A DNA stretch of 64,000 nucleotides. Source: an uncultured Alphaproteobacteria bacterium (GTDB taxonomy: Bacteria > Pseudomonadota > Alphaproteobacteria > RF32 > CAG-239). The notes beneath the pieces are model-generated. The model saw only the letters and a program-made list of their open reading frames with translations. It made no database searches and was not told the origin of the DNA. The DNA lies in contig CALXZL010000001.1 of the NCBI GenBank assembly GCA_944393215.1, positions 11,718-75,717 on the forward strand. Direction: 5' to 3'. The translations under genes were made by a program, and so were the position numbers. Of the stretch, positions 10,081 through 64,000 are shown one piece after another (within the stretch, counting starts at the first letter, position 1; each line of letters opens with the position of its first letter).

Positions 10081-10156
10081 TGGCAGGGGCAGTAAGATTC
10101 GAACTCACGACATTCGGTTTTGGAGACCGACGCTCTACCAACTGAGCTATACCCCT
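10081..10156 (-). tRNA. trnW: tRNA-Trp (anticodon CCA)
   Basis: 76-nt cloverleaf AGGGGTATAGCTCAGTTGGTAGAGCGTCGGTCTCCAAAACC…CTGCCCCTGCCA; anticodon loop CT-CCA-AA; encoded CCA. Confidence 0.9.
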
Positions 10157-10162
10157 ATCAAA
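10116..10162. repeat. attL-type 47-bp direct repeat (tRNA-Trp 5' half plus 7 nt)
   Basis: GGTTTTGGAGACCGACGCTCTACCAACTGAGCTATACCCCTATCAAA, identical to 19267..19313. Confidence 0.85.
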
Positions 10163-10521
10163 ACTTTCTTACCTATAACGTATTCTAAAATATAAATCAA
10201 GTATTTTTTTCTATCCCTTGCAAACAATGGTGTTTTGGCTCTTTGCAAACAAAATATATCTACTTAATTCCAAAGAAAAAACTTTACATTTTCAGATATT
10301 AAAATTTTTAATTTTACCTATCTATAATTTTTTCCCTTTTTTATCCCTAAACCTCCTAAAAATACAAAATTCATATATTTTTTTTGTTTTTTAAAGAACC
10401 TCATTTGCATCATTAGCCTCATTAGCTTTCGGGCTTTTTCCGCCCCACACCCAATTTTCGCGCCCTTTCCCCAAAATGTCCACACTTATTAGGCTAACTA
10501 TTTGAAATTGTGGATAGTTTT

Positions 10522-11154
10522 TCAATGGAGATTATTATCACTCTGTTTCTTTTTTAATTCAAAATTAAATATTTTAATCTCTTCATAGTATGGCAATACA
10601 TATAATAAAATCATTATTAAAATTAAATAGAGGTGAATGTTATTTAAATTTAAGATCTCCAAAACATCTAATACAAATATAATTGATAAAACTTCTAATA
10701 AGATATTAATTTTCTTCTTAAATTCATCTACTGTTTCTACCTTTTTTGTTTTTATTATTTCTGTCTTTGCTGAACGACTACGAACAATTTGATCTTGGTA
10801 GTTTAAATCAAAATTATCTTTTTTTGTACTTTCAGTTTCCGGATTTATTATTTTAAAAAAAGGTGAATTATCATTAGGAAAAACTAAATACCCAATAACA
10901 TCAGCATTTAACTTGCGAGCCTCTTGTAAAAATTTGCTTAATTGTTGCCTTCCCATGTCGACATTTCTTTTATTATTATTAGACTTTAATTCAAATAACT
11001 GCATTGGGGAATTTGTTTCTATATCAATTACCACAAGATCTGCTCTATATTTTCCCAATTTATATTCTGCAATCATACTATTCTCAGGATATCCATGCCT
11101 AATTAAATATTGCTTCAAATTTTCAATCAAATTTTTTTCAACAAGAAGGCTCAT
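10522..11154 (-). CDS. restriction-endonuclease-fold (HsdR N-terminal-like PD-(D/E)xK) protein with C-terminal transmembrane helix
   Basis: N-terminal …GYPENSMIAEYKLGKYRADLVVIDIETNSPMQLFELK (D…E.K motif; resembles the type I HsdR N-terminal domain); C-terminal strongly hydrophobic segment IIFVLDVLEILNLNNIHLYLILIMILLYVL. Confidence 0.5.
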   Translation of the reverse strand: MSLLVEKNLIENLKQYLIRHGYPENSMIAEYKLGKYRADLVVIDIETNSPMQLFELKSNNNKRNVDMGRQQLSKFLQEARKLNADVIGYLVFPNDNSPFFKIINPETESTKKDNFDLNYQDQIVRSRSAKTEIIKTKKVETVDEFKKKINILLEVLSIIFVLDVLEILNLNNIHLYLILIMILLYVLPYYEEIKIFNFELKKKQSDNNLH

Positions 11155-11169
11155 TTTTATTTCCTTTAT

Positions 11170-13182
11170 CTAATTCAATCCAAGAATCCTGAAAAATACT
11201 TCATTTTTCTTTCTTGCGTCATTAAACATCTTTTCATACGTAATAATTTCTAATGAAACTATACATCCTTCTAAAGGATGGTATTTAAAAAAGCCATCAC
11301 CATCTGGAGACTTTTGATAACCAGCAACATCTATTAAATCTGCCTCTATCTTAGGGGTTATATCTGTTACAATATATCCATATAAACGCGTAGAACCATT
11401 AATTTTTATTGGTCGTCCTCTAGAATCAATAGCATTTCCTGAAATTATTTCTTTCATATTTCTAATAATCTCTCGATGAGGATTATAATCCTCCGAAAAA
11501 TTATTCAATCCAGGCTTTTTAAACTCCACTACAGTTATAGAATTTTTGTACTGAAAATCATCCGTATATTTTAATGGTTTATTAAAAATTGTAATATCTG
11601 GTCTTCTTGAAGATGAAGCTTGTAATTCTTTATAATTTTTTATAAGTTCGTCAGAATACAAGGCTTCATGAAAGACTAACTTTTCATCCAACAACCAAAG
11701 ATTATTAGCCTCAAATTCAACAGAATTTGAATTAATTTTCATCGGAATAATAAGCTCATGCAGATAAGCTTCATCTAAAAATTTATTTTCTTCCTTATTA
11801 AATGATATTAGCTGTTCAAACACATCCAATAAAGCTTTTCTATGACAAATATAATTTGACAATTCACAAGTATTAATTCCACTCGATTTTGCTATATATT
11901 TTTTCATAGCATCATCATAAGTTTGTTTAGTCTTTTCATTTAATTTAGTAGATTTTTTTAGCTTATTTCTTAATGCCAACAATTCTTTTTCTTCTTGAAA
12001 CTTTAGATTATGAAGAAATAGCTCCATAGTCTGCATATTAGGATTATTAGGAAGTTTATCAAAAGGAAATTTTTTAGATTTTATACGCTCTATAAAAATT
12101 CTATATCCAGGCTTGTAATTATTTACATATTCAATTAATTTTTCTTTTTTCTTATCTGTAGACTTCTCTAAATAATCAGATAATTCGTTTTTGACTACAT
12201 CTAGACATTTTGCACGTATTTGTGAAAAAGATGGATTCGCTGAATCAAAAAAATCACCATTTTCATCATAATCTTCGGGAATGCTAAATTCCATTTGATT
12301 CGGTTGAATATTTTCATCAAGGTACAAACTGCTTACTATTAAATTATAGTAATAACTATCCTTATCGTCTTTAATTTTTCCATTTAATGTCTCAATATTT
12401 TTTCCAATATTTTCACTAATTATTACTCTGCGATTAGAAGTGTATGCAATTATATTTCTTGTTTCAGTTTCATATAATCTAATACTAATAGTATTAAAGC
12501 TAAAATCTCCTATTGTAAAATTCGATACTTTTTTATCTGATGTGTAGTATTTTTGATACAAATCATTAAGATTTAAACTTTCTTTATTATCTGAAATAGT
12601 AATTGTTGGACAATTGCTTCCCATAAAAAACAACAAACAATGCTCTATAATTAAATGAGCAATTTTAGATAACTCTTGAGGAAAAACTGCTTTATAGGGA
12701 TCTTGGATATTGTGTAAAGATATTACTGTTTTATTTTCACCAAAATTTACATCCTGCACAACTTCATCTAATTCATCCTTTGTTCGTAAAAAATCAAAAG
12801 ATATTTCTTTCTTGCCATTGTTATATATACTATCAACAGACACATGATTAAATACTTTCAACCATGAAAATCTTCCTAACCCTTTGCATCCCTTCGATAT
12901 TTTATGCGTACTATCAAATTTTTTAAAAGAACCAAAATTTTCTTCATTAAACCCTATACCGTTATCAATAATTTTAATGTTTTGAATTTTGGAGACAAAA
13001 TCGTTATTAAGAACTTCTTCTCGCTCGATAATAATATGAATGTATGGAGATTTATTATTCTTCATATCTTCAAGAGATTGAAGGGAATTAACAACAGCCT
13101 CAAACAAAGCATATATCCCTTTTGTTTTGGGCAAATATGTATTTCTTAACTTACCAGCTATATCACCATTAAAAGCAGACAT
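11170..13182 (-). CDS. GHKL-superfamily ATPase (HATPase_c-like) with possible C-terminal PD-(D/E)xK-like region
   Basis: N-terminal Bergerat-fold motifs (ALFEAVVNSLQ…, IKIIDNGIGFNEENF, GCKGLGRFSWLKVF); C-terminal RRPDITIFNK…ITVVEFKKPG resembles a D…E.K nuclease motif; 16 nt upstream of 10522..11154 on the same strand. Confidence 0.55.
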   Translation of the reverse strand: MSAFNGDIAGKLRNTYLPKTKGIYALFEAVVNSLQSLEDMKNNKSPYIHIIIEREEVLNNDFVSKIQNIKIIDNGIGFNEENFGSFKKFDSTHKISKGCKGLGRFSWLKVFNHVSVDSIYNNGKKEISFDFLRTKDELDEVVQDVNFGENKTVISLHNIQDPYKAVFPQELSKIAHLIIEHCLLFFMGSNCPTITISDNKESLNLNDLYQKYYTSDKKVSNFTIGDFSFNTISIRLYETETRNIIAYTSNRRVIISENIGKNIETLNGKIKDDKDSYYYNLIVSSLYLDENIQPNQMEFSIPEDYDENGDFFDSANPSFSQIRAKCLDVVKNELSDYLEKSTDKKKEKLIEYVNNYKPGYRIFIERIKSKKFPFDKLPNNPNMQTMELFLHNLKFQEEKELLALRNKLKKSTKLNEKTKQTYDDAMKKYIAKSSGINTCELSNYICHRKALLDVFEQLISFNKEENKFLDEAYLHELIIPMKINSNSVEFEANNLWLLDEKLVFHEALYSDELIKNYKELQASSSRRPDITIFNKPLKYTDDFQYKNSITVVEFKKPGLNNFSEDYNPHREIIRNMKEIISGNAIDSRGRPIKINGSTRLYGYIVTDITPKIEADLIDVAGYQKSPDGDGFFKYHPLEGCIVSLEIITYEKMFNDARKKNEVFFRILGLN

Positions 13183-13296
13183 ATCTTCATCCTATAATAT
13201 TAAGCTACTTTTAGTTTTATCTTAAATTTTAGTCTTTGCAAATACAAAATATCTTTTCTAAGACATTTAGTTTTAACATCAAAAAATCAACTTTCT

Positions 13297-13644
13297 CTAA
13301 ACCAACTCTAAAAGAGCTTCAATTTGTTTTTGGATAACTTGTAGGGTTTTATTGTCCTGTTTTTTAAGAATTTGAAGAATCTCTAAAATATTGTTGGCTA
13401 CTTCGTCTTCTGTTGGATTCTCTTGAGATTCTGAAAAAAGTTCTTCAATAGAAGTATTAAGTGCATTTGAAATTGATACCAGAGTCGAAATTTTAGGATC
13501 ACTTAAACCACGTTCAATATTAGAAATCGTGTTTATCATTTTACCAGAAGCCTCCGCAAAATCTTCTTGGCTCATTCCTTGTTGTTTTCTTAAATAGGCT
13601 ATTCGTCTGCCTAAATTTTTTAGCATTTGAGTTGTTTCATCCAT
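13297..13644 (-). CDS. XRE-family HTH transcriptional regulator
   Basis: LRKQQGMSQEDFAEASGKMINTISNIERG helix-turn-helix. Confidence 0.75.
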   Translation of the reverse strand: MDETTQMLKNLGRRIAYLRKQQGMSQEDFAEASGKMINTISNIERGLSDPKISTLVSISNALNTSIEELFSESQENPTEDEVANNILEILQILKKQDNKTLQVIQKQIEALLELV

Positions 13645-13790
13645 TTTACACCTCTAATTATTATTTATTTTCACATTAGAGTGTGTAAAACGCCATGATA
13701 GTTAACTGTGTTTTTTGTACCTAAATTTAATTGACTCGCTACACAATACACATTAAAATGTGTGTAAATTTATTTTACTAACATTGAGGT

Positions 13791-14738
13791 GTGGCTATGG
13801 AACAACCTAACATATTTGATTTTGCAACTAGCGAATTATCACAAGATGCTTTTATTTGTTACTTATTAGAATTTGGAAAAGAGAAGTATAAAGACATTTT
13901 TCCAAATGAATATGCAATTGCTCATTTATTTTTCGAAAAAAGTGGACTTACTCAAACAGAAGAACTTTCAGAAATAAAACAACAATACCATGGTATAGAC
14001 GTTTTAGTCATTACATCCAATTCTCTATTAATTATTGAAGATAAAACAAATACTTCAGAACATTCAGATCAGATTATTAGGTATGTAAAAACATTAAAAA
14101 AAGATAATTTATCAAAAGGCAGAAAGATTAAAGTCTGTTATTTAAAAACAAGTAATTATGTACGTGGATATACATCTTCAGATATTACACTACTACCTCA
14201 AGAAGATTGTATTTCTATCAACAGACAAAAGTTTATGGAAATATTGAATTACAAAAAAACAAACAATTTAATATTCCAAAGTTTTTATCTTCGACTTAAG
14301 TCAATGAATGAACTTGCAAAATCTTGTGATACAAAAGACATTTTCAGTTGGAATAAAGAAAAATGGTTTGAATATCTCTTAAATCAATTTGCAGAATATC
14401 CAAAATACTATGACATTGCTTGGGTAAACAATCCCAAAGGTGGATTTTATGGTTGTTGGTTTGATTTTCTTAGTATTGGAAAAGTTGATATATATAAACA
14501 AATAGAAATTTATTTTTCAGAGAATAAAACATCAAACATAAAACTATGCAGAAAACTATTAAGCTCCAGTAGAGATGAGACCATAAAAAACAAAGAATTA
14601 ATAACAAAGTTACAAAACCAATTGCTAGACAAAGGATACACTCCTTCTAATAGAACCGGAAAGACAACAACATATGCTTATAAAAGAGCATCTTGTTTAG
14701 ATGATGTTTTACAGTTTATACAAGAAAATTTGGAATAA
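13791..14738 (+). CDS. PD-(D/E)xK nuclease family protein (PDDEXK_4-like)
   Basis: N-terminal NIFDF…SELSQDAFICYLL and HGIDVLVITSNSLLIIEDKTN…QIIRY match the pattern of the PF14281-type restriction-endonuclease-like family; transcribed divergently from the XRE gene. Confidence 0.5.
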   Translation: MAMEQPNIFDFATSELSQDAFICYLLEFGKEKYKDIFPNEYAIAHLFFEKSGLTQTEELSEIKQQYHGIDVLVITSNSLLIIEDKTNTSEHSDQIIRYVKTLKKDNLSKGRKIKVCYLKTSNYVRGYTSSDITLLPQEDCISINRQKFMEILNYKKTNNLIFQSFYLRLKSMNELAKSCDTKDIFSWNKEKWFEYLLNQFAEYPKYYDIAWVNNPKGGFYGCWFDFLSIGKVDIYKQIEIYFSENKTSNIKLCRKLLSSSRDETIKNKELITKLQNQLLDKGYTPSNRTGKTTTYAYKRASCLDDVLQFIQENLE

Positions 14739-14758
14739 CAATCAAGAAAGGACGGAAT

Positions 14759-15013
14759 ATGATATATAATTTATCTGATGCCTCTGGCAATATTCAAACT
14801 TACCCCCACATTATCCAAGGTACAGTAACTATTATCAGAGAACCCATTAAAGGAACTATGCTTTTTCCAACAGGTTCTTCGGGAATGGAATTATTAAAAT
14901 GTGATGAGAAATTTATTTATATGAGAGATCCTTATAATTCATCTAATGTAAATGTGTTTGACGAAGATGGATATAAGGTTAGAGATATTTCAATTAATGA
15001 ATTAAACTTTTAA
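14759..15013 (+). CDS. small hypothetical protein
   Basis: 84-aa ORF 20 nt downstream of 13791..14738. Confidence 0.35.
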   Translation: MIYNLSDASGNIQTYPHIIQGTVTIIREPIKGTMLFPTGSSGMELLKCDEKFIYMRDPYNSSNVNVFDEDGYKVRDISINELNF

Positions 15014-15059
15014 TATTGTATAAAGTAGGGCTAACAACAGTAGCCCTACTTTTTCTTTT

Positions 15060-17399
15060 CTACAAATTCTCTAAATTATAAACTTCAGGATTTACATAAT
15101 AAGTTTTACGCCTTCTACCCGCGGTTTTCCCTGCTCTTGAAGATCCGCAACTTAACCAACCTAAATCCATAAGTTTATTTGCAGCAATTTGAACTTGTTC
15201 TTTCCTTCGCAAGTTTGCAATATTTCCATTATTATATATATCTCGTAGGGTAAAGCTACATAGCTTATTTTCAATAATGTATCTTGCCAAAGAACGAGCC
15301 TCAATATTTTGAGATGGACTGTAATACATATTATATACCCGTTCACACATTGGCGTTATGTATGTATCATATAATTCAATTGCTGTTTTAATCGCCTCAA
15401 GACTTATCTCTGTTGGTTCGCTATATTCTGAACTTGCCCACCATAACATCTCAAACAGTAAAGCAAAACGCAATACATAACCTTGACCTTTACCAAGGAA
15501 ATATTTCAAAATACTTTCCTCACTCTGTGATTTATTTAAATGTGCTAGATACCAAGTATTAAAAAGCTGTTGAGCCTCAATACTTAACAACAAGCATTTC
15601 TTCTGTTTCTCAGCATTATCTACATATGGATTTAATAGAGAATCAAGTTTTTCGAATGCTGGCAATACTTTTTCCGGTAAAGCAATATCTTGAGGAATAG
15701 AAGCCGGTTTAGGCTCCGGATAGACCCATAGAAAGCGCGCAAGGAAGCCGTCCCCGCGGTCAGAAAGAACCGTGTCAATGAGCCTTTGAGGCTGTATAGT
15801 CCCGAAAACAGAAACAAGCAAATTTTGAATTTCTTGCCGTTCATCATCAAATTTAACACGATTACAAACAAATTTATTGCCATTAAACGCTTCAAGCCAA
15901 AACCCCTTTTCTGAACTACCACTATTATAGCGATTCATTCCACTAATCCAAGCGGATAATTCATCTCGAAAGAGTATTGCCCCTTTAATATTTCTTTCCA
16001 TATCTGAGGTTAATGCCTCTTGAGTGGTATCTCCATAAACAAAACGATATGTTTGAGGTTTTGGAGGCACAACAGCGGAAGCTGGAAATTTAGGTGCTAA
16101 ATCAGGAGCTTCTTTTACTTTATCCTCCCACTCTTTTCTTCTTTGTTTTGCAACTTCCTTTTCAGTCTTCCACTTTGCTAATTTATCAGAATAATCTTCC
16201 TTTCGAGCTTCCTCAATTTTGTTAAGAATTTTCCGAATTGGTGTTGTTGCTGGTGTTTTACCTGAACTTGGCTCTCCAATTACACCAATCCACAAACAAC
16301 ATTTTTCTTCCCAAGTTCCCCAAGGCGAGATACTTCGAGACAAACCAATAACACCTGCGGCACCAGCAAGCAAAGAAAATGCAACATAATCAATCGGAGC
16401 ATTCGTATTTTCTGCCGTTTGAACAACCCAATCTTCTAAATTTTTAAATATTTTTGTATTTAATATTGGAGCAGGTAAAAGGATTTTTGTTTTCAAAATA
16501 TCCATATCCGGCTCAATATCATCCCAATCGTTACAATGTTCTTCAACAAATTTTAAGGCGTTATCATAAGTTTTTAACGATTCTTCTTTTGATAAACCTG
16601 AACGAATAGCCGCACCAATAACACGCTCTTTTATATCTGTCATATTTGCTTTTTCATGTTTAGCACGCTTTATAAGGCTGATAGAACGCCTATAAAGCGT
16701 ATCGTTGCGTTGTCCTTGCGGTGCGTTTGAAATATCTTCCAGAAAGCCTGAAATAGGCAAAGTCTGTTTTTCCTCATTCGTAAGCAAAGAAAGCAACCAA
16801 CTTGGAGCCTGTGGGAAATCCTGATTTATATCAAAATTTTCCCAAGTATATTGATGTCCATTTTCATGAATGGAAGGAGGTGCAACGACATAACCACCAT
16901 TAGCTCTTATATCAATATGATCGGCAATTTTGCTAACACTCGACTTAATGTCTATATTTTCCGGCATTTTGAAATATAAATGTTTTCCCTTTCCTGTTAT
17001 AACAGTTGGTACATCTAATTTTCCATAAAGACGTTCTAAACACTCTAAAGATTGAAGACCTTGTTCGCCATCAACATCCAAAACAAAGATATTATTAAGC
17101 TGTCCGGTTGGAATACCGATATTACAATCAAAGAATTTTTTATTCCATTCTTGTAAAATGGCTGTATCAACAGTTGCCGACTTAAAGCCTCCTACGCAAA
17201 GAGGTGATTTTCCTTGCTTTTTTACAGGAAATACTTTAATATTTCTGCTTGTATAAAACATAGCAACATCATAGAAATTGCGAGTTTCCAAGATTTTGTT
17301 TATGTTTTGAGAAGATATTGCAGTATCTTCTCGTTTTGGGAGTGAAGAGGCTTGCGCCTCTCTCTCCTGTTTTTCAATCAAAATGTTTTTTAGTTTCAT
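15060..17399 (-). CDS. bifunctional primase-polymerase (Prim-Pol) / P-loop helicase-like replication protein
   Basis: N-terminal Prim-Pol motifs (VLDVDGEQG…, GKGKHLYF, IDIRANGGYVVAPPSIH); central P-loop GEPSSGKT (DUF3987/D5-like NTPase), 779 aa. Confidence 0.7.
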   Translation of the reverse strand: MKLKNILIEKQEREAQASSLPKREDTAISSQNINKILETRNFYDVAMFYTSRNIKVFPVKKQGKSPLCVGGFKSATVDTAILQEWNKKFFDCNIGIPTGQLNNIFVLDVDGEQGLQSLECLERLYGKLDVPTVITGKGKHLYFKMPENIDIKSSVSKIADHIDIRANGGYVVAPPSIHENGHQYTWENFDINQDFPQAPSWLLSLLTNEEKQTLPISGFLEDISNAPQGQRNDTLYRRSISLIKRAKHEKANMTDIKERVIGAAIRSGLSKEESLKTYDNALKFVEEHCNDWDDIEPDMDILKTKILLPAPILNTKIFKNLEDWVVQTAENTNAPIDYVAFSLLAGAAGVIGLSRSISPWGTWEEKCCLWIGVIGEPSSGKTPATTPIRKILNKIEEARKEDYSDKLAKWKTEKEVAKQRRKEWEDKVKEAPDLAPKFPASAVVPPKPQTYRFVYGDTTQEALTSDMERNIKGAILFRDELSAWISGMNRYNSGSSEKGFWLEAFNGNKFVCNRVKFDDERQEIQNLLVSVFGTIQPQRLIDTVLSDRGDGFLARFLWVYPEPKPASIPQDIALPEKVLPAFEKLDSLLNPYVDNAEKQKKCLLLSIEAQQLFNTWYLAHLNKSQSEESILKYFLGKGQGYVLRFALLFEMLWWASSEYSEPTEISLEAIKTAIELYDTYITPMCERVYNMYYSPSQNIEARSLARYIIENKLCSFTLRDIYNNGNIANLRRKEQVQIAANKLMDLGWLSCGSSRAGKTAGRRRKTYYVNPEVYNLENL

Positions 17400-17818
17400 T
17401 TTGTTTCTCCATTATTTTGTTTATAACTAAATCCTTTGGGATAAATTGAATTAGCTTGCTCTTTTTTCAGCTCCTCTAATTCATTTTGAGCTTTCTCAAT
17501 TTCTAGCCTTGGCTTATCGCAACAAACATACCGTAAAAATGCAATAGCCTCCTTCGTTTCATATAAGACTTGATTGTTAATAGGATTGTGAAAAGAATTT
17601 TTTATTCCCTCATTTCTTGAATCAAGATTTTTCAAAGTATGTGCATTGAGAGGTGTAATCTCACAAAGCTTTACTCGACTAATTAATGGAGCATAGGCTA
17701 TAATTTTCTGCTCATATTGCTTTAAAAATTTTTCCGGTAATGGTTGAGGTAATCTCTCAATTTTCGCAACCAATTTTGCTATTTTTTGCGCTGTCGTTTT
17801 TTGTCTAAAACTCGTCAT
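17396..17818 (-). CDS. hypothetical protein, possible AlpA/Xis-like DNA-binding protein
   Basis: 140 aa, lies between integrase and primase as in P4-type elements; weak HTH-like segment RVKLCEITPLNAHTLKNL. Confidence 0.35.
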   Translation of the reverse strand: MTSFRQKTTAQKIAKLVAKIERLPQPLPEKFLKQYEQKIIAYAPLISRVKLCEITPLNAHTLKNLDSRNEGIKNSFHNPINNQVLYETKEAIAFLRYVCCDKPRLEIEKAQNELEELKKEQANSIYPKGFSYKQNNGETK

Positions 17819-17960
17819 ACTTTTTCTCCTTTATGGCTTGTTAAAGACAATAAAGTCGATTCCGATTTCCAACTTTAACAACGCATTGTTTTTGCTTAAA
17901 AAAATCATCAAAGCAATAAACGCATAAAAATAGACAAAATAATATTTTATACAATAATAT

Positions 17961-19091
17961 TTAGCTGTTTAACTTAGAAACTGCTTCGCGTAATGTTTCA
18001 TTTGCCAAATGCGAGTAACGTTGTGTCATGGCAATATCAGAATGCCCTAACAATTCTTTCACTTCATAAAGGGAAACTCGTTTTTGAACTAAACGACTGG
18101 CAAAAGTATGCCGCAAAGAATGAAAAACTACCTTTTGTCGACGGTCGATAATACCATCATTTAAACCTAAAGTTTTAACTACTCTCTCAAAAGTTCTTGA
18201 AACATGCTCAATCTTTCCACCGTTTTTACTTTGGAATACAAATTCATTTCCCTCGCCCGGCTTTAATTTTGATATTTCCTCAAACACACGATTTGTCATA
18301 TAGGCAAAACGATTTTTGCCATTTTTGGTATCACGCAAAAATAACATTTTTTCTTCAAGGCTAACATCTGCCCAAGTTAACTTAAAAATCTCTCCAGCTC
18401 TTAATCCGCAATCTGCAGAAATTAATGCCATTAAATAAACGGAGTAGCTATGTTCCTTGAGTTTTTCAAAAAGATTATTTAACTCTTCTTCGGAAAGAAA
18501 TCTCATACGACGATTATCTTCTCTTTTTAACTCGTCGAATTTTGCTGCCGGATTATCGCCTGCAAAAAGCTCATTTCTTATAGCAAAATTAAAAACTTGC
18601 CGAATTAAAGCTATAGCATAAAATTTTGAACGATTAGATAAATGCTTTTTTTCCATAGGCTGTAGTAACCTTATGAGGCTAACGCGGCTAATGAGGTTTA
18701 ATCTAACACCACCTAAAAACGGCTTAATCCACTTTTTATATAAATGGACTTCCCTATCATAAGTTGATTTTTTATCTTTATTTTGAATATGAGGCTGATA
18801 ATATTCTTCAAATAATTCTGAAAATGTTATATTTGCTGCCTCATTAGCTATTTTTTCTTGTTCGCGTTGTTCGTTCTTTTCTCTCAAAGAAAAAGCCCTA
18901 CCAGCCTTTATATCTCTCTTAAGTTCGCCTAAAATTTCATATGCTTGAGCCGCTGTAAATCCTTCTGATTTATAGCCTATACTTTCTTCATATTGTTTAC
19001 CATTGCGAGTGTAGCGAACAGAAAAATAAACATCTTTTCTGCCATTGCGAATACATTCTTTAGAACGTACACCAGGAAAACTCTTTACCAT
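17961..19091 (-). CDS. int: tyrosine-type site-specific integrase
   Basis: C-terminal catalytic HSLRHTFASRL…LLGHSDIAMTQRYSHL (R-H-R-Y motifs), 376 aa, next to the attR repeat. Confidence 0.9.
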   Translation of the reverse strand: MVKSFPGVRSKECIRNGRKDVYFSVRYTRNGKQYEESIGYKSEGFTAAQAYEILGELKRDIKAGRAFSLREKNEQREQEKIANEAANITFSELFEEYYQPHIQNKDKKSTYDREVHLYKKWIKPFLGGVRLNLISRVSLIRLLQPMEKKHLSNRSKFYAIALIRQVFNFAIRNELFAGDNPAAKFDELKREDNRRMRFLSEEELNNLFEKLKEHSYSVYLMALISADCGLRAGEIFKLTWADVSLEEKMLFLRDTKNGKNRFAYMTNRVFEEISKLKPGEGNEFVFQSKNGGKIEHVSRTFERVVKTLGLNDGIIDRRQKVVFHSLRHTFASRLVQKRVSLYEVKELLGHSDIAMTQRYSHLANETLREAVSKLNS

Positions 19092-19266
19092 TTTACAAAA
19101 TTCCTTCTTATCGGTTTCTTTACCCTAATTATTACCTAAAGAGACGGAAAAAACGAGTACACCTAAGTACGCTAAGGTACGCCAAGCAAAAAAAACTTTT
19201 ACGCTTGAATGTATTGAAAACTAACTAAAATGTAGGGAAATTAAATACTTTGAAAAATTAATCTGG

Positions 19267-19313
19267 GGTTTTGGAGACCGACGCTCTACCAACTGAGCTA
19301 TACCCCTATCAAA
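19267..19313. repeat. attR-type 47-bp direct repeat (displaced tRNA-Trp 5' half)
   Basis: Identical to 10116..10162; lacks the tRNA 3' half. Confidence 0.85.
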
Positions 19314-19415
19314 TCTTGCGTAATATTAGATACACAACTATTCACTATAAATCAAGTCTTTTTTTATTATTCAGCAAAAAAGTTCATAAAAAAAGCGGAC
19401 TTTAATCCGCCTTTA

Positions 19416-34112: not shown

Positions 34113-34435
34113 AAATAAAATATTACAAGCCAGAACGAACCCGGGTTCTCTCCATCCGGGAAGTCATAACAAAAAAAGCCGTCCTCTACAGACGGCTTTT
34201 ATGGCGTACCCGAAGGGCTTGAGGAAGAAATAATCTCCGGTGGAGATTATTTCAACGAAAGGCGCAGATTTGTTAGCTTTGAGGCAAGCAACAGCGCCGC
34301 CGACAAAGCATTACAAATCAAGTGACCGCAGCGCAGTTAGTGAGCTTGCGAACTTACAAGCCAGAACGAACCCGGGTTCGACCATCCGGGAAGCCATGAC
34401 AAAAAAAGCCGTCTTAAACAGACGGCTTTTTATGG
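34113..34435. repeat. tandemly duplicated tRNA-Arg 3'-end/terminator region carrying a ~140-bp conserved noncoding element (copy 1 of 2 in the window)
   Basis: Degenerate tRNA 3' end TGGCGTACCCGAAGGG at 34202..34217 plus a terminator, repeating the real tRNA-Arg 3' end and terminator at 34405..34448; conserved element 34225..34366 with a perfect hairpin ATAATCTCCggtGGAGATTAT (34230..34250); homologous to 58843..58976. Confidence 0.7.
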
Positions 34436-34509
34436 CGTACCCGGAGGGATTCGAACCCACGACCCTCGGCGTCGGAGGCCGATACTCTATCCAACTGAGC
34501 TACGGGTAC
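34433..34509 (-). tRNA. tRNA-Arg (anticodon CCG)
   Basis: GTACCCGTAGCTCAGTTGGATAGAGTATCGGCCTCCGACGCCGA…GGGTACGCCA; anticodon loop CT-CCG-AC; 77 nt. Confidence 0.85.
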
Positions 34510-34682
34510 ATTATAAACAATCGATACATGAATACACCCATTTAAAACAGAATACCAGCAAAATTTCACCTTTTTTAGAGTTAAAAGCTCAATTTCACAA
34601 AATTTCACTTGACTATTTGTCCAATTATATGTATTAACAAGCAACAAGTTCTGTTTATAAGATAATTTTAAGGAAGATAACA

Positions 34683-39977: not shown

Positions 39978-40161
39978 ACTCTTGCTTTACGCAAACAAAT
40001 CCACTAAATTATGGGAAATTAAATAGGAATATGTAAGAAAATAAATTTACATACAAAATTGCTCGCCGCGCGTCGGTTAAACTTTCTTTAATTGACGTGC
40101 TGCGCCGGAAGTTTTTGACGACGTGTACATTTAAAGGTACACGAGGAGAAAATTTCCAAGC

Positions 40162-58681: not shown

Positions 58682-59075
58682 GCAAATAATCCTTACAAAT
58701 CAAGTGACCGCAGCGCGGTTAGTGAGCTAAAGCGAACTTACAAGCCAGACAGGGATTTCAATCCCTTCGCCCGGATACAAAAAAACCTCCGCAACGGGAG
58801 GTTAAGAATTGGAGCGGGCTGAAGGAGAAAATAATCTCCGGTGGAGATTATTTTAACGACAGGCGAAGATTTGTTAGCTTTGAGGCAAGCGACAGCGCCG
58901 ACGATAAAGCCTTACAAATCAAGTGACCGCAGCGCGGTTAGTGAGCTAAAGCGAACTTACAAGCCAGACAGGGATTTCAATCCCTTCACCCGGATACAAA
59001 AAAACCTCCGCAACGGGAGGTTAAGAATTGGAGCGGGTGAAGGGATTCGAACCCTCGACATCAACCTTGGCAAAA
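58682..59075. repeat. tandem repeat region ending in an orphan tRNA-Gly(GCC) 3' fragment; contains copy 2 of the ~140-bp conserved element
   Basis: Partial element 58682..58739; degenerate tRNA 3' end TGGAGCGGGCTGAAGG 58809..58824; full element 58843..58976 with hairpin ATAATCTCCggtGGAGATTAT 58848..58868; tRNA-Gly(GCC) 3' fragment TGGAGCGGGTGAAGGGATTCGAACCCTCGACATCAACCTTGGCAA 59029..59073 (T-arm, acceptor 3' strand and anticodon loop only). Confidence 0.7.
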
Positions 59076-59296
59076 TTTTTAGATTCTCCCTATCCCCTGA
59101 AAATCTGCCATACAGAAGACTCATTAGGTATAAGACCTTGCTATTTTATACACAGAGAAGACATCATCACATCAAACACATACTTCTCTCTAAGATGTCA
59201 AAATCAATGATTTCAAACATCAAAAATGATGAATAAAAATATTGACATTTCCAATTATACCTTAGTTATTTTGTGTAAACACACACTAAATTAGGT

Positions 59297-59375
59297 CATA
59301 AAATGTGAATAGAACCACTTTTTTCCCTCATAAAATGTGATTGGAAACAAAAATTTCCTTTACAAAATGTGATTG
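59297..59375 (+). promoter_or_regulatory. three direct repeats (cA(t/c)AAAATGTGAtT) at exact 32-bp spacing upstream of the AAA+ ATPase gene
   Basis: AAAATGTGA cores begin at 59300, 59332 and 59364; the last ends 39 nt before the ATG at 59414. Confidence 0.5.
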
Positions 59376-59413
59376 CAAGCATATGTTAATATCAAATATG
59401 AAAGGATGACACA

Positions 59414-60724
59414 ATGAAAAGACTTGCTTTTGAACAATTATTAGAATGGAAGAACAAACAAAACAGAAAACCTTTAATTGTCCAAGGAGCAAGACAGGTT
59501 GGCAAAACTTGGTTAATGAAAGAATTTGGAAGACAACATTATTCCAAAGTTGCATACATCAGCTTTGATGCCAACAAAACAGCTAATGATATTTTTGAAG
59601 CTGATTATAATATTTCAAATATCATACAAGCATTAAATATTTTATCAGGAGTTGATATTACTCCTCAGGATACCTTAATTATATTTGATGAAATCCAAGA
59701 GTCAGAAAGAGCTTTGAATTCCTTAAAATTCTTCAAAGAAAATGCTCCTGAATATCACATTATGGCAGCAGGAAGTTTATTAGGTGTGGCTGTTAAACAA
59801 AAAAATATGTCTTTTCCTGTTGGGCAAGTGGAATTTCTAAATCTTTATCCTTTAAGTTTTATAGAATTTCTATCTGCTATTGGAGAAGATAAACTTTGTA
59901 ACATTATATGTGAAAGGAACATACTACTCAGTAAAGCATTTAAAGATACATTCATATCTTTATTAAAATTATATATGTTTATTGGAGGAATGCCTGAAGT
60001 TGTATATAGTTATACTCAAAACAAAAATCTTGATATTGTCAGAGAAATACAAAATCAAATACTTTTAGGCTATCAAAATGATTTTTCCAAATACACTGAA
60101 AGTTTTAATGTTGCCAGAATCAATGCTGTTTGGCATTCTCTACCCTCCCAATTAGCAAAAGAAAATAAAAAATTTGCTTATAATCAAATAGCCCCAAGTG
60201 CAAGAGCAAGGGAATATGAAATGGCAATTGAATGGCTAATTCTTTGTGGTTTGGTATATAAAATAAATAGAATTTCTAAACCTGATGTGCCTTTGTCTGC
60301 TTATGCAGATTCTTCAGCATTTAAACTTTATATGATAGATACTGGATTATTAGGAGCTCTATCTTCTTTAGATGCCAAAGCAATTATTGAGGGTAATAAA
60401 ATTTTTGAAGAGTTCAAGGGGGCTTTAACAGAACAATTTGTATTACAAGAACTTATTTTGCAAAAAAACTTACCCATTGCTTATTGGAGCTCAGAAAGTA
60501 GTCAGAATGAAATAGATTTTGTAATTCAATATAATAATCAAATCATTCCTATTGAAGTAAAATCATCTATAAATTTAAAAGCAAAAAGTTTAAGTGCATA
60601 CAGAGAAAAATATAAACAAGAAATAGCTATTAGGACATCCTTAGCTGACTTTGAAATTAATCAAGGTCTGCATAATATCCCCTTATATTTGGTAGATAAT
60701 CTTCTAAATTTTATTGAAGAGTAA
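59414..60724 (+). CDS. AAA+ ATPase, DUF4143 family
   Basis: Walker A GARQVGKT, Walker B IIFDEIQ, 436 aa with the family-typical C-terminal DUF4143 region. Confidence 0.65.
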   Translation: MKRLAFEQLLEWKNKQNRKPLIVQGARQVGKTWLMKEFGRQHYSKVAYISFDANKTANDIFEADYNISNIIQALNILSGVDITPQDTLIIFDEIQESERALNSLKFFKENAPEYHIMAAGSLLGVAVKQKNMSFPVGQVEFLNLYPLSFIEFLSAIGEDKLCNIICERNILLSKAFKDTFISLLKLYMFIGGMPEVVYSYTQNKNLDIVREIQNQILLGYQNDFSKYTESFNVARINAVWHSLPSQLAKENKKFAYNQIAPSARAREYEMAIEWLILCGLVYKINRISKPDVPLSAYADSSAFKLYMIDTGLLGALSSLDAKAIIEGNKIFEEFKGALTEQFVLQELILQKNLPIAYWSSESSQNEIDFVIQYNNQIIPIEVKSSINLKAKSLSAYREKYKQEIAIRTSLADFEINQGLHNIPLYLVDNLLNFIEE

Positions 60725-60962
60725 AACTATATATTTTTAGATAAGGTGGAAAGGTATAAAAACCAACTCCACCTCACCTAATATACGGCTTCTATACATC
60801 CATAAAAAATGTATCATACAAAAAATCTAAAGGGAGCCCTCTTTTTTTATTTTCTTGAAAAAAATTTATTAAAACTAGGCTTTTTGATAAATATATGTGA
60901 ATGAGTTTCAATAAGTATATAATAATCCATTAATATCTCCAACATTGATAGGATGTTGGAGT

Positions 60963-61514
60963 TTAATTTTTCAGATATGAATACAAAGTAGGTCTGGATA
61001 TGTGATACTTTCTTGCCAGTTCAGAGAGGGAAACTTTTTGAGATTTTGCCAATTCTTTCAACTCAGCAATCTCTTGGGGGGACAATTTATGTTTTCCACC
61101 CTTATATTTGCCTTTCATTTTAGCCAAAGCAATTCCTTCTCTTTGTCTTTCAAGAATTAAACTTCTCTCAAGCTCAGCAACTGCCCCAAGCATTGTCATC
61201 ATCAATTTTTGATATGGGTCATTTTTACCTGCTTCAAAAGTCAGATTTTCCTTATGGAATTTTATAGTGACTCCTTGGGATGTGATTTCCTCTACCAAAT
61301 TCAGTAAATCTCTAGTATTCCTAGCTAATCTATCCATAGAATGCACATTGATGATGTCTCCAGCTCTGATAATAGAGAGCAATAATTCCAGTTGAGGCCT
61401 ATTTCTGTCCTTACCTGACAATTTATCCTCAAACTCCCTATCACATTTTATGTTGAGTAATTGTCTTTCTGTGCTTTGGTCTATTGTTGAAACTCTCTTG
61501 TAATTGAAAATCAT
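60963..61514 (-). CDS. serine recombinase (resolvase/invertase family)
   Basis: N-terminal catalytic YKRVSTIDQSTERQL with Ser nucleophile, …DRLARN…, C-terminal HTH LSELARKYHISRPTLYSYL; 183 aa. Confidence 0.85.
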   Translation of the reverse strand: MIFNYKRVSTIDQSTERQLLNIKCDREFEDKLSGKDRNRPQLELLLSIIRAGDIINVHSMDRLARNTRDLLNLVEEITSQGVTIKFHKENLTFEAGKNDPYQKLMMTMLGAVAELERSLILERQREGIALAKMKGKYKGGKHKLSPQEIAELKELAKSQKVSLSELARKYHISRPTLYSYLKN

Positions 61515-61523
61515 ATTGCCACC

Positions 61524-61620
61524 TGTAAAGTTAAAATCTTAAACATAACTTTACAATAAATAAAAACTGTAAAATTGTCAAGTATTTTGATTTCAACTTT
61601 ACAGTTTTAAAATTGTCAAA
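61524..61620. promoter_or_regulatory. inverted-repeat sites upstream of the serine recombinase (candidate res / crossover sites)
   Basis: TGTAAAGTT-N14-AACTTTACA (61524..61555); TGTAAAaTTG-N16-CAAcTTTACA (61568..61603); direct repeat AAAATTGTCAA at 61571 and 61609. Confidence 0.5.
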
Positions 61621-61685
61621 TCAGCCTCTACTCTAAATTTACAGCAAATAAAGCTACAAAAGGTATATTTTGTTGCATTTTTGCA

Positions 61686-62084
61686 TCAATATTCATCAGC
61701 AAGCATCACAGTCATCACTCTTCTAGTCTTGATGCTATCATATGGTGCTGGTGAGTGATATTTCAATTCAGTATCATAATAGTCAATTTTCCATATGATT
61801 TTGTAATTTTTGAAATTAATAATGCCAAAATCTTTCTCCCCATAGGGGTTGTTGTCATCATTAAAATCATCATAAAAGCTGATAGTTCTCATTATTTGGA
61901 ATAAGTCATAATTAGAAAACATTGACATTCCTGAAGAATACACAATTTCTCCATTTCTATGGAAAATTCTCAGCATATCATTGAGATTTTGCATTCTTTT
62001 TAATTGTTCTTGATTATACATAAAAAAATCTCCCTTACTAGTAAGAGAGATTTTAACCAGAAATTTTAGCTCTGTCAGGTCCAT
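61686..62084 (-). CDS. hypothetical protein
   Basis: 132-aa ORF between the recombinase and hsdR. Confidence 0.35.
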   Translation of the reverse strand: MDLTELKFLVKISLTSKGDFFMYNQEQLKRMQNLNDMLRIFHRNGEIVYSSGMSMFSNYDLFQIMRTISFYDDFNDDNNPYGEKDFGIINFKNYKIIWKIDYYDTELKYHSPAPYDSIKTRRVMTVMLADEY

Positions 62085-62095
62085 AAATAGATTAT

Positions 62096-64000
62096 TTAAA
62101 TGTAATCACTGACAATATCCCTAAATCTATTAAAGAAATTAATTATTTTTTCTAATACTGTTGTCCTCTTAATTCCTCTATCATTATTTTTGGTAAATAA
62201 AGAAACTGGGGGTAAAATTTTATTAATTGCTGTACCTGTTGTGGGTACAAAACCATCTCTAAAGGCATTTTCAATAAATTTATAGGTTTCCTCTTTATTT
62301 AATTTTTCCTCTTCTATAATTTTATCCAATTCAACTAATTTCTGTTGTCCCACATAGGTTTTCCAATCTTTATCAACATCTGAGCTTGGAGTTAGAGATG
62401 CTATAAAATTCATAATCAAATCTTTTTTACTTCTCAATTCCATACTAGAATCAACAGATTTCTCAATATTCACAATGATTTCTTTATCTTTTTGCTCACC
62501 AGATTGATATTTTTTAATAAGCATCAAAATATAGTCAATATTGATTTCAACTTGTTTTATTAATTCCATTTCAAAAACAATATCATCATTAATATTATCT
62601 TTGTCCTTTTTAGTTTTGTTTCTCCATTCTTCATATAATGAAATATACATACTATGGTAATCCTGAACATCTCTATCAGTTAAGATGCCTTTCCCCATAA
62701 ATTCATCAAATGAAGATAAAATATTTTTAACTCTTAAAATTCCACCATATAGTTTGATAAAGTCTTTTTGGGCTTGCTCACTCACTATCACTTCACCAAT
62801 AGGGTATTGTTGTTGCAATTCTTCTATTAATTGAGTGTATGGTCTAACAAACTTTCCTTTTTCATCATAATAACCATCACTATAATATTCCTTAAATGTT
62901 TTCAGTAAAACAATTCCACCTGCTTCTTTATTTCCAAACAGGGCTATGCTTTTATTGGTGGCATCTTCCAAATTTCTAAAGCAAACAATATTTCCATATG
63001 TTTTTACAGAATTAAGGATTCTGTTTGTTCTTGAATATGCCTGCAACAAACCTTGTGATTGGAGATTTTTATCCACCCATAATGTATTCAATGTTGTTGC
63101 ATCAAACCCTGTCAGGAACATATTAACCACAATAAGCAGGTCAATTTCCCTATTTTTCATCCTTAATGATACATCTTTATAATAATTTTGGAACTTATCA
63201 CTTGATGTATCATAGGTTGTTCCAAACATTTTATTATAGTCAGCAATAGCTTTTTCCAAAAACTCTCTGCTACTTGCATCTAAACTGTCAGTATTTTCAG
63301 GATTTTCATCATCAAAGCAATCAACACTGTTATCATCCCCATTGGGAGCATAGCTATAGATAGTAGCAATTTTTAATTTCTTTTCTGGATGTTCCTTCAT
63401 TTGTTTTTGGAATTCTGTATAATATAGCTTTGCCATATCAATACTAGCAACACAGAATATAGAATTAAAACCTGTTAATCTAACTTTTGCCTTAATTTCA
63501 TCCAAGGCTTTTTGATTTTTAGCAGATGCCATTTCTTTAATATTCTGGAGTTTGCTAAATTCATAAGACCTATCATTTCTTTTTGTTTTTTGATTAAAGT
63601 GCTCCAAAATATATTCAACCACTCTGGAAATTCTCTCTGGAGCTTGCAGAGCTTTTTCTCTATCTATATTCCAAACTTTGCTGTCAGCAATATTTTCTTG
63701 CTCCTTCATTGTACTGATATAATCAATTCTAAAAGGAAGAACATTTTTGTCAGCAATTGCATCCACAATAGTGTAAGTATGTAATTTTTCTCCAAAGGCT
63801 TGCTCTGTTGTTTTCAGCTTTGGATTTCCTCCCTGATAAGCATTTTCTGCAAATATGGGAGTTCCTGTAAACCCAAATAAATGATATTTCTTAAATGCTT
63901 TGGTAATATAGATATGTTGCTCACCAAATTGGCTTCTGTGGCATTCATCAAAAATCAATACCAAATGTTGCTTATATATAGGATGTTCTTTATTTTTTTT
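62096..64000 (-). CDS. hsdR: type I restriction enzyme R subunit, C-terminal part (N-terminus lies beyond the window edge)
   Basis: Helicase motif II DECHR, motif III GFTGTP, motif VI QAYSRTNR; the ORF is open to the window end. Confidence 0.8.
   Translation of the reverse strand, partial: KKNKEHPIYKQHLVLIFDECHRSQFGEQHIYITKAFKKYHLFGFTGTPIFAENAYQGGNPKLKTTEQAFGEKLHTYTIVDAIADKNVLPFRIDYISTMKEQENIADSKVWNIDREKALQAPERISRVVEYILEHFNQKTKRNDRSYEFSKLQNIKEMASAKNQKALDEIKAKVRLTGFNSIFCVASIDMAKLYYTEFQKQMKEHPEKKLKIATIYSYAPNGDDNSVDCFDDENPENTDSLDASSREFLEKAIADYNKMFGTTYDTSSDKFQNYYKDVSLRMKNREIDLLIVVNMFLTGFDATTLNTLWVDKNLQSQGLLQAYSRTNRILNSVKTYGNIVCFRNLEDATNKSIALFGNKEAGGIVLLKTFKEYYSDGYYDEKGKFVRPYTQLIEELQQQYPIGEVIVSEQAQKDFIKLYGGILRVKNILSSFDEFMGKGILTDRDVQDYHSMYISLYEEWRNKTKKDKDNINDDIVFEMELIKQVEINIDYILMLIKKYQSGEQKDKEIIVNIEKSVDSSMELRSKKDLIMNFIASLTPSSDVDKDWKTYVGQQKLVELDKIIEEEKLNKEETYKFIENAFRDGFVPTTGTAINKILPPVSLFTKNNDRGIKRTTVLEKIINFFNRFRDIVSDYI

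Follow-up and report, generated by a model that had tools for sequence, protein, structure and literature searches.

A folded core of about 150 nt at tRNA genes of gut Alphaproteobacteria: a candidate non-autonomous mobile element in an integrase-less cassette

Attachment sites in tRNA genes reportedly fall into two classic classes, distinguished by Williams in 2002, in which the repeated segment runs to the 3′ end of the gene from either the T loop or the anticodon loop. In tRNA-targeting elements, including those of the CIME type, the insert lies between direct repeats of the 3′ part of the tRNA, which extend from the T or anticodon loop to CCA, and brings with it a functional 3′ end together with a terminator; elements accumulate by tandem accretion. 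Fragments of tRNA genes act as the attR of integrative elements (PMC9897764), and phage Ms6 provides an example of an att site in the T loop (PMC1762012). Small sequences that depend on an enzyme supplied in trans form a separate group: the PATEs, which are non-autonomous derivatives of IS200/IS605 elements, and the REP/REPIN sequences linked to HUH Y1 enzymes are non-coding, strand-specific and structured as single strands, and PATEs are inserted directly 3′ of a short motif without terminal inverted repeats (TIR) or target-site duplication (TSD). Rickettsia palindromic elements (RPEs), ERIC sequences and Correia elements are likewise folded, multi-copy sequences of 100-150 bp whose route of mobilization is obscure or acts in trans; RPEs are alphaproteobacterial and insert in frame into protein genes, and Correia elements are bounded by terminal inverted repeats with duplication of TA. 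To our knowledge, an association with tRNA loops or a module derived from tRNA is found in none of these three. Group I introns, finally, occur as structured RNA inserts in the anticodon loops of bacterial tRNA genes.

The sequence described here adjoins tRNA genes at two sites of the window, by which we mean the whole 64-kb stretch of DNA that was analyzed, and its features are collected in Table 1. At both sites the arrangement is that of a cassette consisting of a core, a segment named X (an inverted, decayed copy of the T arm), the terminator of the tRNA and its 3′-terminal 9-16 nt. The cassette adjoins the tRNA 3′ end and completes the gene with its own copy of that end and its own terminator, the displaced end being found on the far side. 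The two cores, of 148 and 150 bp, are 91% identical, and a repeat search aligned 34215-34346 with 58816-58947 at the same identity (91%); the two elements of about 90% identity described in a sequence-only reading of this DNA are thus recovered, with slightly shifted coordinates. That reading had also described locus-specific flanks duplicated around a shared element, and these correspond to tandem periods of 230 at locus 1 (34152-34200 vs 34382-34430, 90% identical) and 219 at locus 2 (58688-58818 vs 58907-59037, 98% identical). The covariance model detected no further core in the 64 kb beyond the two full copies and one truncated copy.

Table 1. Features of the two core-bearing loci of the window, with coordinates on the plus strand
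Locus	Feature	Coordinates	Strand	Basis or remark
1	116-aa gene, stop codon	34107		Start of the locus 1 plan, read on the plus strand
1	12-nt remnant TTACAAGCCAGA, 3′ end of an older core copy	34123..34134	+	Equals the last 12 nt of the core
1	X(old), decayed inverted tRNA-Arg T arm and 3′ end	34135..34170	+	Sequence reading; older tandem-unit copy
1	Terminator hairpin, older copy	34171..34200	.	Inverted-repeat and terminator analysis
1	Displaced 3′-terminal 16 nt of tRNA-Arg (T-stem 3′ strand to CCA)	34202..34217	-	
1	Core copy 1	34218..34365	+	Covariance model, 160 bits; fold; covariation
1	Core 1, closing helix P0	nt 1-3 of core		CTT paired with AAG
1	Core 1, hairpin H1	34227-34253		Perfect 12 bp, arms 34227-34238/34242-34253, 3-nt loop
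1	Core 1, long hairpin H2	34267-34319		
1	Core 1, invariant linker TGACCGCAGCG	34323-34333		
1	Core 1, hairpin H3	about 34335-34360		Core 3′ end AGCCAGA
1	X(new), inverted decayed tRNA-Arg T arm and 3′ end	34366..34400	+	Opens with palindrome CGAACCC/GGGTTCG
1	Terminator of the tRNA-Arg gene, cassette-supplied, bidirectional	34401..34431	.	Inverted repeat and sequence
1	tRNA-Arg(CCG), intact	34433..34509	-	
2	5′-truncated core, 3′ 63 nt remaining	58687..58749	+	Covariance model; found in all strains at locus 2
2	X copy A, inverted tRNA-Gly T arm	58750..58778	+	
2	Terminator copy A	58779..58803	-	T-run on minus strand only
2	Displaced 3′-terminal 9 nt of tRNA-Gly, TGGAGCGGG on plus strand	58810..58818	-	
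2	Core copy 2	58819..58968	+	Covariance model, 158 bits
2	Core 2, closing helix P0			CTG paired with CAG
2	Core 2, hairpin H1	58828-58854		Perfect 12 bp, arms 58828-58839/58843-58854, 3-nt loop
2	X copy B, inverted tRNA-Gly T arm	58969..58997	+	
2	Terminator copy B	58998..59022	-	Minus strand only
2	tRNA-Gly(GCC) 3′ half, anticodon loop to CCA	59029..59073	-	

At locus 1, the displaced end and the end of the intact gene (34202-34217 and 34433-34448) form an att-like direct repeat, and the displaced copy carries a G-to-A change in most alleles, which is consistent with a copy freed from constraint. At locus 2, the displaced 9 nt repeat the 3′ end of tRNA-Gly (59029-59037); the 5′ half of this tRNA-Gly(GCC) is replaced by an island, and the gene is whole in other strains. 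The direct repeats of the cassettes correspond to both the T loop-to-3′ end and the anticodon loop-to-3′ end classes and, judged by its layout, the arrangement is that left by tRNA-targeting integrative elements, with the integrase absent: the insert of 219-230 bp contains no integrase and no ORF. The att-like layout of the degenerate tRNA end, the nature of X as an inverted T-arm copy and the conserved one-strand fold reported below are features that the sequence-only reading does not mention.

At both loci X is complementary to the tRNA 3′ region across the terminator, and X, terminator and tRNA 3′ end together form a long hairpin (z = -7.9 and about 40 bp at locus 1; z = -6.0 at locus 2). 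The segment opens with a short palindrome built from T loop and T stem, and the arm of X copy B, 21 nt in length, is 86% complementary to 59034-59054. The same construction is found at other tRNAs, each with its own sequence. The decay of the X copies in comparison with the tRNA suggests that X is a relic of how the structure arose and not a functional part of it.

The window cores are crossed by two ORFs (34240-34545 and 58841-59236), which to judge from their sequences are not genes. Both start at a GTG located within the hairpin loop, where the triplet is not conserved (loops read GGT, GAT, GGC, AGC and others), no conserved ORF exists in the core, and the lengths of copies differ by numbers that are not multiples of three. 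The view that the ORFs are spurious and that conservation acts at the nucleotide level had been expressed before and is borne out by these data.

To define the distribution of the core, a one-genome-per-species collection was scanned with the hairpin pattern, giving 34 loci, 11 of which contain the whole core; all 11 belong to uncultured Alphaproteobacteria or to proteobacterial metagenome-assembled genomes. Pattern loci from Oscillospiraceae and Desulfosporosinus were rejected, only the 21-bp hairpin being common to them and the covariance model giving no match. A metagenome scan with TTACAANNNNAGTGACCGCAGCG returned 46 loci, many of them in assemblies labelled as human gut, and the covariance model recovered 79 copies (61 distinct) from gut Alphaproteobacteria, all on the same model strand; the family resides in the chromosomes of these uncultured bacteria. 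The tRNA genes adjoining cores number at least 11, namely Arg-CCG, Arg-ACG, Gly-GCC, Lys-CTT, Ala-GGC, Ala-CGC, Val-TAC, Val-GAC, His-GTG, Pro-TGG and Asp-GTC. Because related copies occur in many genomes and at many tRNAs, the core represents a family rather than a local duplication. The sequence-only reading had suggested a count of copies and contexts, now 79 copies at no fewer than 11 tRNA species, and had named restriction to the two window loci as the contrary case, which the presence of the family in many genomes contradicts. A literature search found no published account of such an element, and the family as far as found is apparently undescribed.

The core is a discrete unit. Every full copy begins with 5′-CTNGAGG and ends with AGCNAGA-3′, and copies measure 147-156 nt. 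Immediately before the core stands a G, and before that a G or an A. Of 13 independent contexts, 12 have a left flank that terminates in GG or GGG, and the remaining one has a flank terminating in GAG. Two motifs containing TTACAA are conserved in the family, GTTACAAA, which is invariant, and CTTAC(G/A)AG; the earlier description of a TTACAA-flanked core is accordingly right about the motifs, which are nevertheless not the borders of the element. As a recombination breakpoint, TTACAA was rejected on the evidence of the truncated copy at locus 2, which extends about 10 nt to the left of it. A GGCGC...GCGCC pair, also described earlier for both copies, does not hold up, as locus 2 reads GGCGA and the consensus fold leaves both segments unpaired.

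Any of the D, anticodon, variable and T loops can hold an insertion, and both orientations relative to the tRNA gene occur. The core lies within an antisense copy of the T-loop region at the Arg, Val, His, Gly and Ala(GGC) loci and at most Lys loci, and within a sense copy at tRNA-Pro, where it enters the anticodon loop after TTTGGG. At Ala(CGC) it follows the D-loop sequence GTTGGG and is succeeded by a fresh promoter-like stretch and a complete gene, and at Val(GAC) it occupies the variable region. Insertion at tRNA 3′ ends, as first described, applies to both window loci; D, anticodon and variable loops are also used elsewhere. Insertion into tRNA loops is accompanied by the loss of 1-4 target bases. 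Outside tRNA sequence, a diverged core in L051 is nested within a second small element, here called type B, whose uninterrupted copies (L025, L022 and L049) read ..GGAGAG|GC|AGACGG.. at the site, the GC being lost on insertion of the core. Cores are also repeated head to tail, in two or three copies, without any tRNA part, with three copies in L068 and further tandems in L056, L098, L094, L027, L030 and L022; the junction AGA|GGAGGAA, seen in L030 and L027, looks like an insertion at GG| beside a resident copy whose first two bases were lost.

No terminal inverted repeats were found beyond about 4 nt (CTGG/CCAG), and position 3 of the core covaries with an internal base. The search for target-site duplications that had been proposed earlier yielded none, with a loss of 1-4 bases in their place (2 nt for L051 against L025); the 9-16-nt tRNA repeat flanks the cassette and not the core. 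The earlier proposal of a small, non-autonomous, tRNA-associated mobile element is in its essentials upheld, but its comparison with MITEs is not, as the core has no TIR beyond these few nucleotides and no TSD. Among the sequences compared, no strict empty/filled pair for a core-only insertion occurs within one species, and neither a circular nor an excised form was seen.

Nineteen diverse copies, which align at 73% mean identity, share a consensus fold of three hairpins and a closing helix on one strand. In this fold, nucleotides 1-3 (CUN) pair with NAG about 43 nt downstream to form the closing helix, followed by H1, a long H2 with a conserved apical loop, the invariant single-stranded 11-mer UGACCGCAGCG and H3, with a further 2-bp contact to the 3′ end of the core. 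The perfect hairpin seen by the earlier reading in both window copies is H1, with 12 bp and a loop of 3 nt. Among the 19 representatives, 92% of cells are paired and 26 of 40 pairs show compensatory changes; in the 61 distinct copies, whose alignment was fitted to the model and is biased towards that structure, the values are 94.5% and 32 of 40. For both sets, no shuffle among 500 equalled the observed values, and slid controls were paired at 31-45%. Compensatory differences are found between the two window copies in P0 (CTT/AAG vs CTG/CAG) and between the tandem copies of L054 in H1 (CTCC..GGAG vs CTTC..GAAG). Conserved secondary structure with compensatory changes, the generic mark of a structured non-coding RNA, is thus present. 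The fold appears to be kept by purifying selection even between tandem copies, which would be just as compatible with a function that benefits the host.

Folding energies and counts of G-U pairs are the basis on which we argue for a single strand. The consensus folds at -24.9 kcal/mol on the plus strand and at -12.6 kcal/mol on the minus strand, for 17 of 19 copies the plus strand gives the lower RNA energy when sequences are folded singly, and G-U pairs are numerous in the 61-copy set. With DNA parameters, both window copies fold about equally well on either strand, so these data do not separate an RNA form from an ssDNA form.

Strain variation was defined from contigs encoding exactly the neighboring proteins. 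A 229-bp unit is present at locus 1 in the window, L001, L004, L007 and L008 and absent from L003, L005 and L006. The short allele keeps the 12-nt remnant TTACAAGCCAGA, which thus also occurs in strains without the full unit, followed by X(old), which in the window matches this "single-copy" allele, and the terminator; the X and terminator of the added unit are variants unlike the resident copy. At locus 2, single and double states exist, two terminator alleles are combined in all ways (a/a, b/b and b/a), and most strains carry an intact tRNA-Gly(GCC) without the island. Other species with the same X variant match the locus 1 added unit at 94-95% identity in X and terminator, and for the cassette as a whole (core and X-plus-terminator) identity across species is 92-95%. 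The corresponding values are 80-88% for adjacent intergenic DNA, with about 80% in the species that have the same X variant, and 81-85% for two neighboring genes. As the cassette is more alike across species than the DNA next to it, the comparison points to horizontal acquisition of the unit and spread of the cassette; its presence or absence can also be obtained by deletion between its direct repeats of 105-131 bp.

With CIME-type and other tRNA-targeting elements, the cassette shares the flanking direct repeat, the supplied 3′ end and terminator, and tandem accretion. It differs in that the insert spans only 219-245 bp without an integrase, in that one and the same core is found at 11 or more tRNA specificities, in either orientation, and also moves without a tRNA part, and in that its conservation is that of a single-strand fold and not of protein-binding arms. 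With PATEs and REP/REPIN sequences, the core has in common its small size, its non-coding and strand-specific character and its single-strand structure; like PATEs, it is inserted directly 3′ of a short motif (GG or GGG) without TIR or TSD, and it would likewise need an enzyme in trans. In contrast to PATEs, however, no copy shows any sequence in common between its end hairpins H1 and H3, each of which also differs from copy to copy, the target is GG(G), 1-4 bases are lost, and the apparent copy number is low and tied to tRNA genes. A target loss of this size fits no standard recombinase chemistry. With group I introns of anticodon loops it shares the nature of a structured, RNA-like insert in a tRNA loop; unlike them, it reaches only half the length of the smallest example known, lies mostly antisense to the tRNA, is hosted by fragments and has no match in Rfam. 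Set against the features that define MITEs, PATEs, integrase elements and known RNAs, the core falls short in each case. On this comparison, its behavior appears closest to that of a non-autonomous transposon of the single-strand type joined to a miniature integrative cassette.

Alternative explanations differ in what they make of these data. A plus-strand sRNA gene of the host or of an island, located at tRNA att recombination hot spots and copied by recombination rather than transposition, is unlikely, though well short of negligible. In its favor are the strong, strand-biased conserved fold with its invariant single-stranded 11-mer, maintained between tandem copies, and the terminator on the strand of the core that follows within 30-70 nt at many loci (L063, L081, the tRNA-Pro loci and locus 1). 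Upstream of the core, however, no sigma-70-like promoter was found on the plus strand at either window locus, and the left neighbor is a terminator plus tRNA fragment that leaves no space for a conserved promoter. The locus 2 terminators serve the tRNA strand only, their T-runs lying on the minus strand, opposite to the core. Sites hold 0 to 3 copies, among them truncated, nested and core-only tandem ones, and the constant GG| junction at 11 sites or more is unexplained by simple recombination. The sRNA gene, an option already raised by the sequence-only reading, is accordingly retained here as a rival, weakened by the missing promoter and the opposite-strand terminators. A reading of the cores as scars is improbable; according to it, they are the attP-proximal arm of larger integrase elements left between attL and attR after deletion or accretion, in the manner of the CIMEs of streptococci. 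The flanking repeats match both classic tRNA att classes, a genuine tyrosine-integrase island occupies tRNA-Trp in the same window, and arrays lie beside islands or prophages: an island enters the anticodon loop of tRNA-Gly from 59074 onward, and in L101, L102 and L055 a prophage with a large serine recombinase lies behind a core at the pseudo 3′ half of tRNA-Pro. In L107, by contrast, the prophage sits directly at the real tRNA-Pro without any core; the two positions indicate that partial tRNA copies serve as extra attachment sites. Scars would not be expected to have identical borders at all sites and tRNAs, to nest in non-tRNA sequence or to form core-only tandems, nor would hairpin covariation be expected of double-stranded protein-binding arms. 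The covariance model found no core in the tRNA-Trp island, the examined part of the locus 2 island or the L102 prophage, and in phage and plasmid collections and viral contigs, matches were confined to host DNA flanking prophages and to a single bacterial contig that had been mislabelled. Absence from these elements, together with movement without tRNA parts, argues that the core is not the mere scar of a larger element.

Still less probable is an intron-like or ribozyme RNA, self-splicing, self-cleaving or RNA-mobilized, that enters tRNA loops as RNA and is fixed by reverse transcription. The core does sit in exposed loops of the cloverleaf, L092 presents a promoter, the 5′ half of tRNA-Pro, the core in the anticodon loop and the 3′ half in succession, conserved junctions with variable helices are typical of catalytic RNAs, and tandem multimers are what rolling-circle copying gives. 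Yet the core is antisense to the tRNA in most loci, the interrupted tRNA copies are fragmentary or degenerate (in the D arm in L092 and L081), and the first base of the core is C and the last exon base G, unlike group I or group II introns. Rfam, suggested earlier as a check, gave no family match for the core at gathering thresholds on the window, and searches relaxed to E<=10 for locus 1 and to E<=5 for L025 and L058 likewise yielded no family of relevance, the hits being only tRNA and terminator-like hairpins; group I introns, group II introns and known ribozymes were without a match even at E<=10, and retron msr, Y RNA-like RNAs and tmRNA were also among the families without one. No transposase or reverse transcriptase was found among the ORFs of the 64-kb window. 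Coincidental resemblance, or a plain segmental duplication confined to this genome, has nothing in its favor beyond both copies sharing one window and can be set aside almost entirely in view of 79 copies spread over many genomes and tRNA species and of covariation far above shuffled controls.

We think it somewhat likelier to be right than wrong that the core is a non-autonomous mobile element, active as a folded single strand (ssDNA or RNA) and borne by a miniature cassette that lacks an integrase and restores the 3′ end of the tRNA. The core would be a selfish element moved in trans by a putative enzyme encoded elsewhere. Within the 64-kb window no gene for TnpA, RAYT or a Y1 HUH transposase is present, and the only recombinases found there are a small resolvase, encoded by the island next to locus 2, and the tyrosine integrase of the tRNA-Trp island, which is unrelated. 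The substrate for movement would be a folded single strand, either ssDNA, as in IS200/IS605-type elements and integron attC sites, or RNA, and G-rich positions in the hairpin loops of tRNA genes would be the preferred targets. Insertion into an essential tRNA gene would survive only in a partial duplicate or where the cassette restores the gene. Read along the tRNA strand, the order is tRNA, terminator, inverted copy and direct copy carrying the core, an order that may reflect two template switches, at the terminator and at the T-arm palindromes, in a tandem-inversion duplication. The cassette may then spread and multiply by recombination across the tRNA 3′-end repeat, site-specific in trans or homologous. 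Bolder, and rather doubtful although a little less so than the sRNA gene, is the proposal of a new class of mobile element, in which a folded strand of about 150 nt (RNA or ssDNA) targets tRNA loops 3′ of GG with machinery unrelated to transposase, integrase or intron systems. Such an element might be ribozyme-assisted or copied by a rolling circle, its insertion provoking inverted or tandem partial duplications of the tRNA that spare the host.

If mobile, the core would be among the smallest elements with a defined conserved fold, and it would target the most conserved genes of the cell yet carry a repair kit in the form of a spare tRNA 3′ end and terminator. It would also account for part of the tRNA-fragment clutter at tRNA genes of the sampled genomes, and the difference between L102 and L107 suggests that it makes extra attachment sites that prophages use. 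With its length of about 150 nt, strong covariation and GG| junction, it would offer a testable system for a new mechanism of single-strand recombination or RNA-mediated insertion. Should it be an sRNA instead, an uncultured gut lineage would possess a class of structured RNA that is both new and widespread.

Several further candidates were considered and rejected. Matches or complements of at least 7 nt between core and flanks, as a guide RNA in the style of bridge RNA or omega-RNA would use, gave no consistent pattern. Group I intron, hammerhead, HDV-like, hatchet, integron attC and sso-like motifs received no support by eye or from permissive Rfam searches. Priming of reverse transcription by tRNA was set aside because the flank length varies over 9-17 nt, although the 16-nt copy of the tRNA end resembles a primer-binding site, and because sense insertions in D and anticodon loops could not act as such a site. 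Retron-like a1/a2 stems were dismissed as no reverse transcriptase lies nearby, and the flanks of the core pair because X is an inverted tRNA copy. Truncation at the 5′ end was likewise not taken as a sign of reverse transcription, given the simpler explanation that deletions extending towards the tRNA would remove the terminator; one deletion, seen on comparing L072 with L071, shows plain microhomology.

Two larger insertions, an integrative and a defence-type island, also lie in tRNA genes of this stretch; their features are listed in the table. The tRNA-Trp(CCA) gene is the site of an integrative island whose cargo further includes a PD-(D/E)XK nuclease and a HATPase protein. Unusually, the island doubles the 5′ half of tRNA-Trp together with its promoter (10116-10171 versus 19267-19322, 95%), and in the tRNA-Trp copy at 19233-19307 the 5′ half is fused with island DNA at the anticodon loop. 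Beside the second copy of the core, the folded non-coding element inserted at tRNA genes, a defence-type island stands in place of the tRNA-Gly(GCC) 5′ half; most strains of the same species (retrieved loci L011-L014) do not carry it.

Coordinates of island features (in the window) and of the type B/C element (in a retrieved locus)
Feature	Position	Strand	Context
Integrative island	10157-19232		tRNA-Trp(CCA)
PrimPol + DUF3987	15060-17399		tRNA-Trp(CCA) island
Tyrosine integrase	17961-19091	minus	tRNA-Trp(CCA) island
Defence-type island with DUF4143 AAA ATPase, small resolvase, DUF3768, type I restriction R subunit	59074-64000		replaces the tRNA-Gly(GCC) 5′ half
32-bp tandem repeat, 2.5 copies, TCATAAAATGTGATTGGAAAC...	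59296-59375		tRNA-Gly(GCC) island border, directly upstream of DUF4143 ATPase gene
Type B/C element	L025:5366-5460		further in L022, L049, L051, L058, L085

In four retrieved loci (L101, L102, L055, L107), the 3′ end of tRNA-Pro(TGG) serves as integration site for a prophage that carries DUF2924 and a large serine recombinase. Its position varies: some strains have it behind the core array, at the pseudo 3′ half, and L107 has it at the real tRNA-Pro gene. The record labelled 'UNVERIFIED: Bacteriophage sp.' (L103; GenBank MT837050.1) is a bacterial chromosomal fragment with the gene order radC, tRNA-Pro, core and tRNA-Pro 3′ half.

The T-loop position that the core takes up in partial tRNA copies is also a site for a second family of small elements, termed type B/C. 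The element is ~85 nt long, its reverse complement starts with CTAGGAGGAGAGGC or CTACAAGCGAGAGGC, and it is accompanied by its own inverted T-arm copy and its own terminator; no match for it was found in Rfam.

In unrelated genomes outside the Alphaproteobacteria, identical copies of the 21-bp hairpin ATAATCTCCNNNGGAGATTAT occur repeatedly, at 12 loci in the Oscillospiraceae MAG SIG505 and at 8 loci in Desulfosporosinus spp. (both sets within L023-L053). A covariance-model search of these loci for the core fold returned no match, their flanks show no relation to the core, and the hairpin there probably represents an independent repeat family. Within the window, a 58-nt repeat containing a GTGTAC...GTACAC hairpin occurs in two copies (2871-2928 versus 40103-40160, 71% identical), one directly downstream of rplJ and one directly upstream of yidC, and may constitute a conserved regulatory or terminator element.
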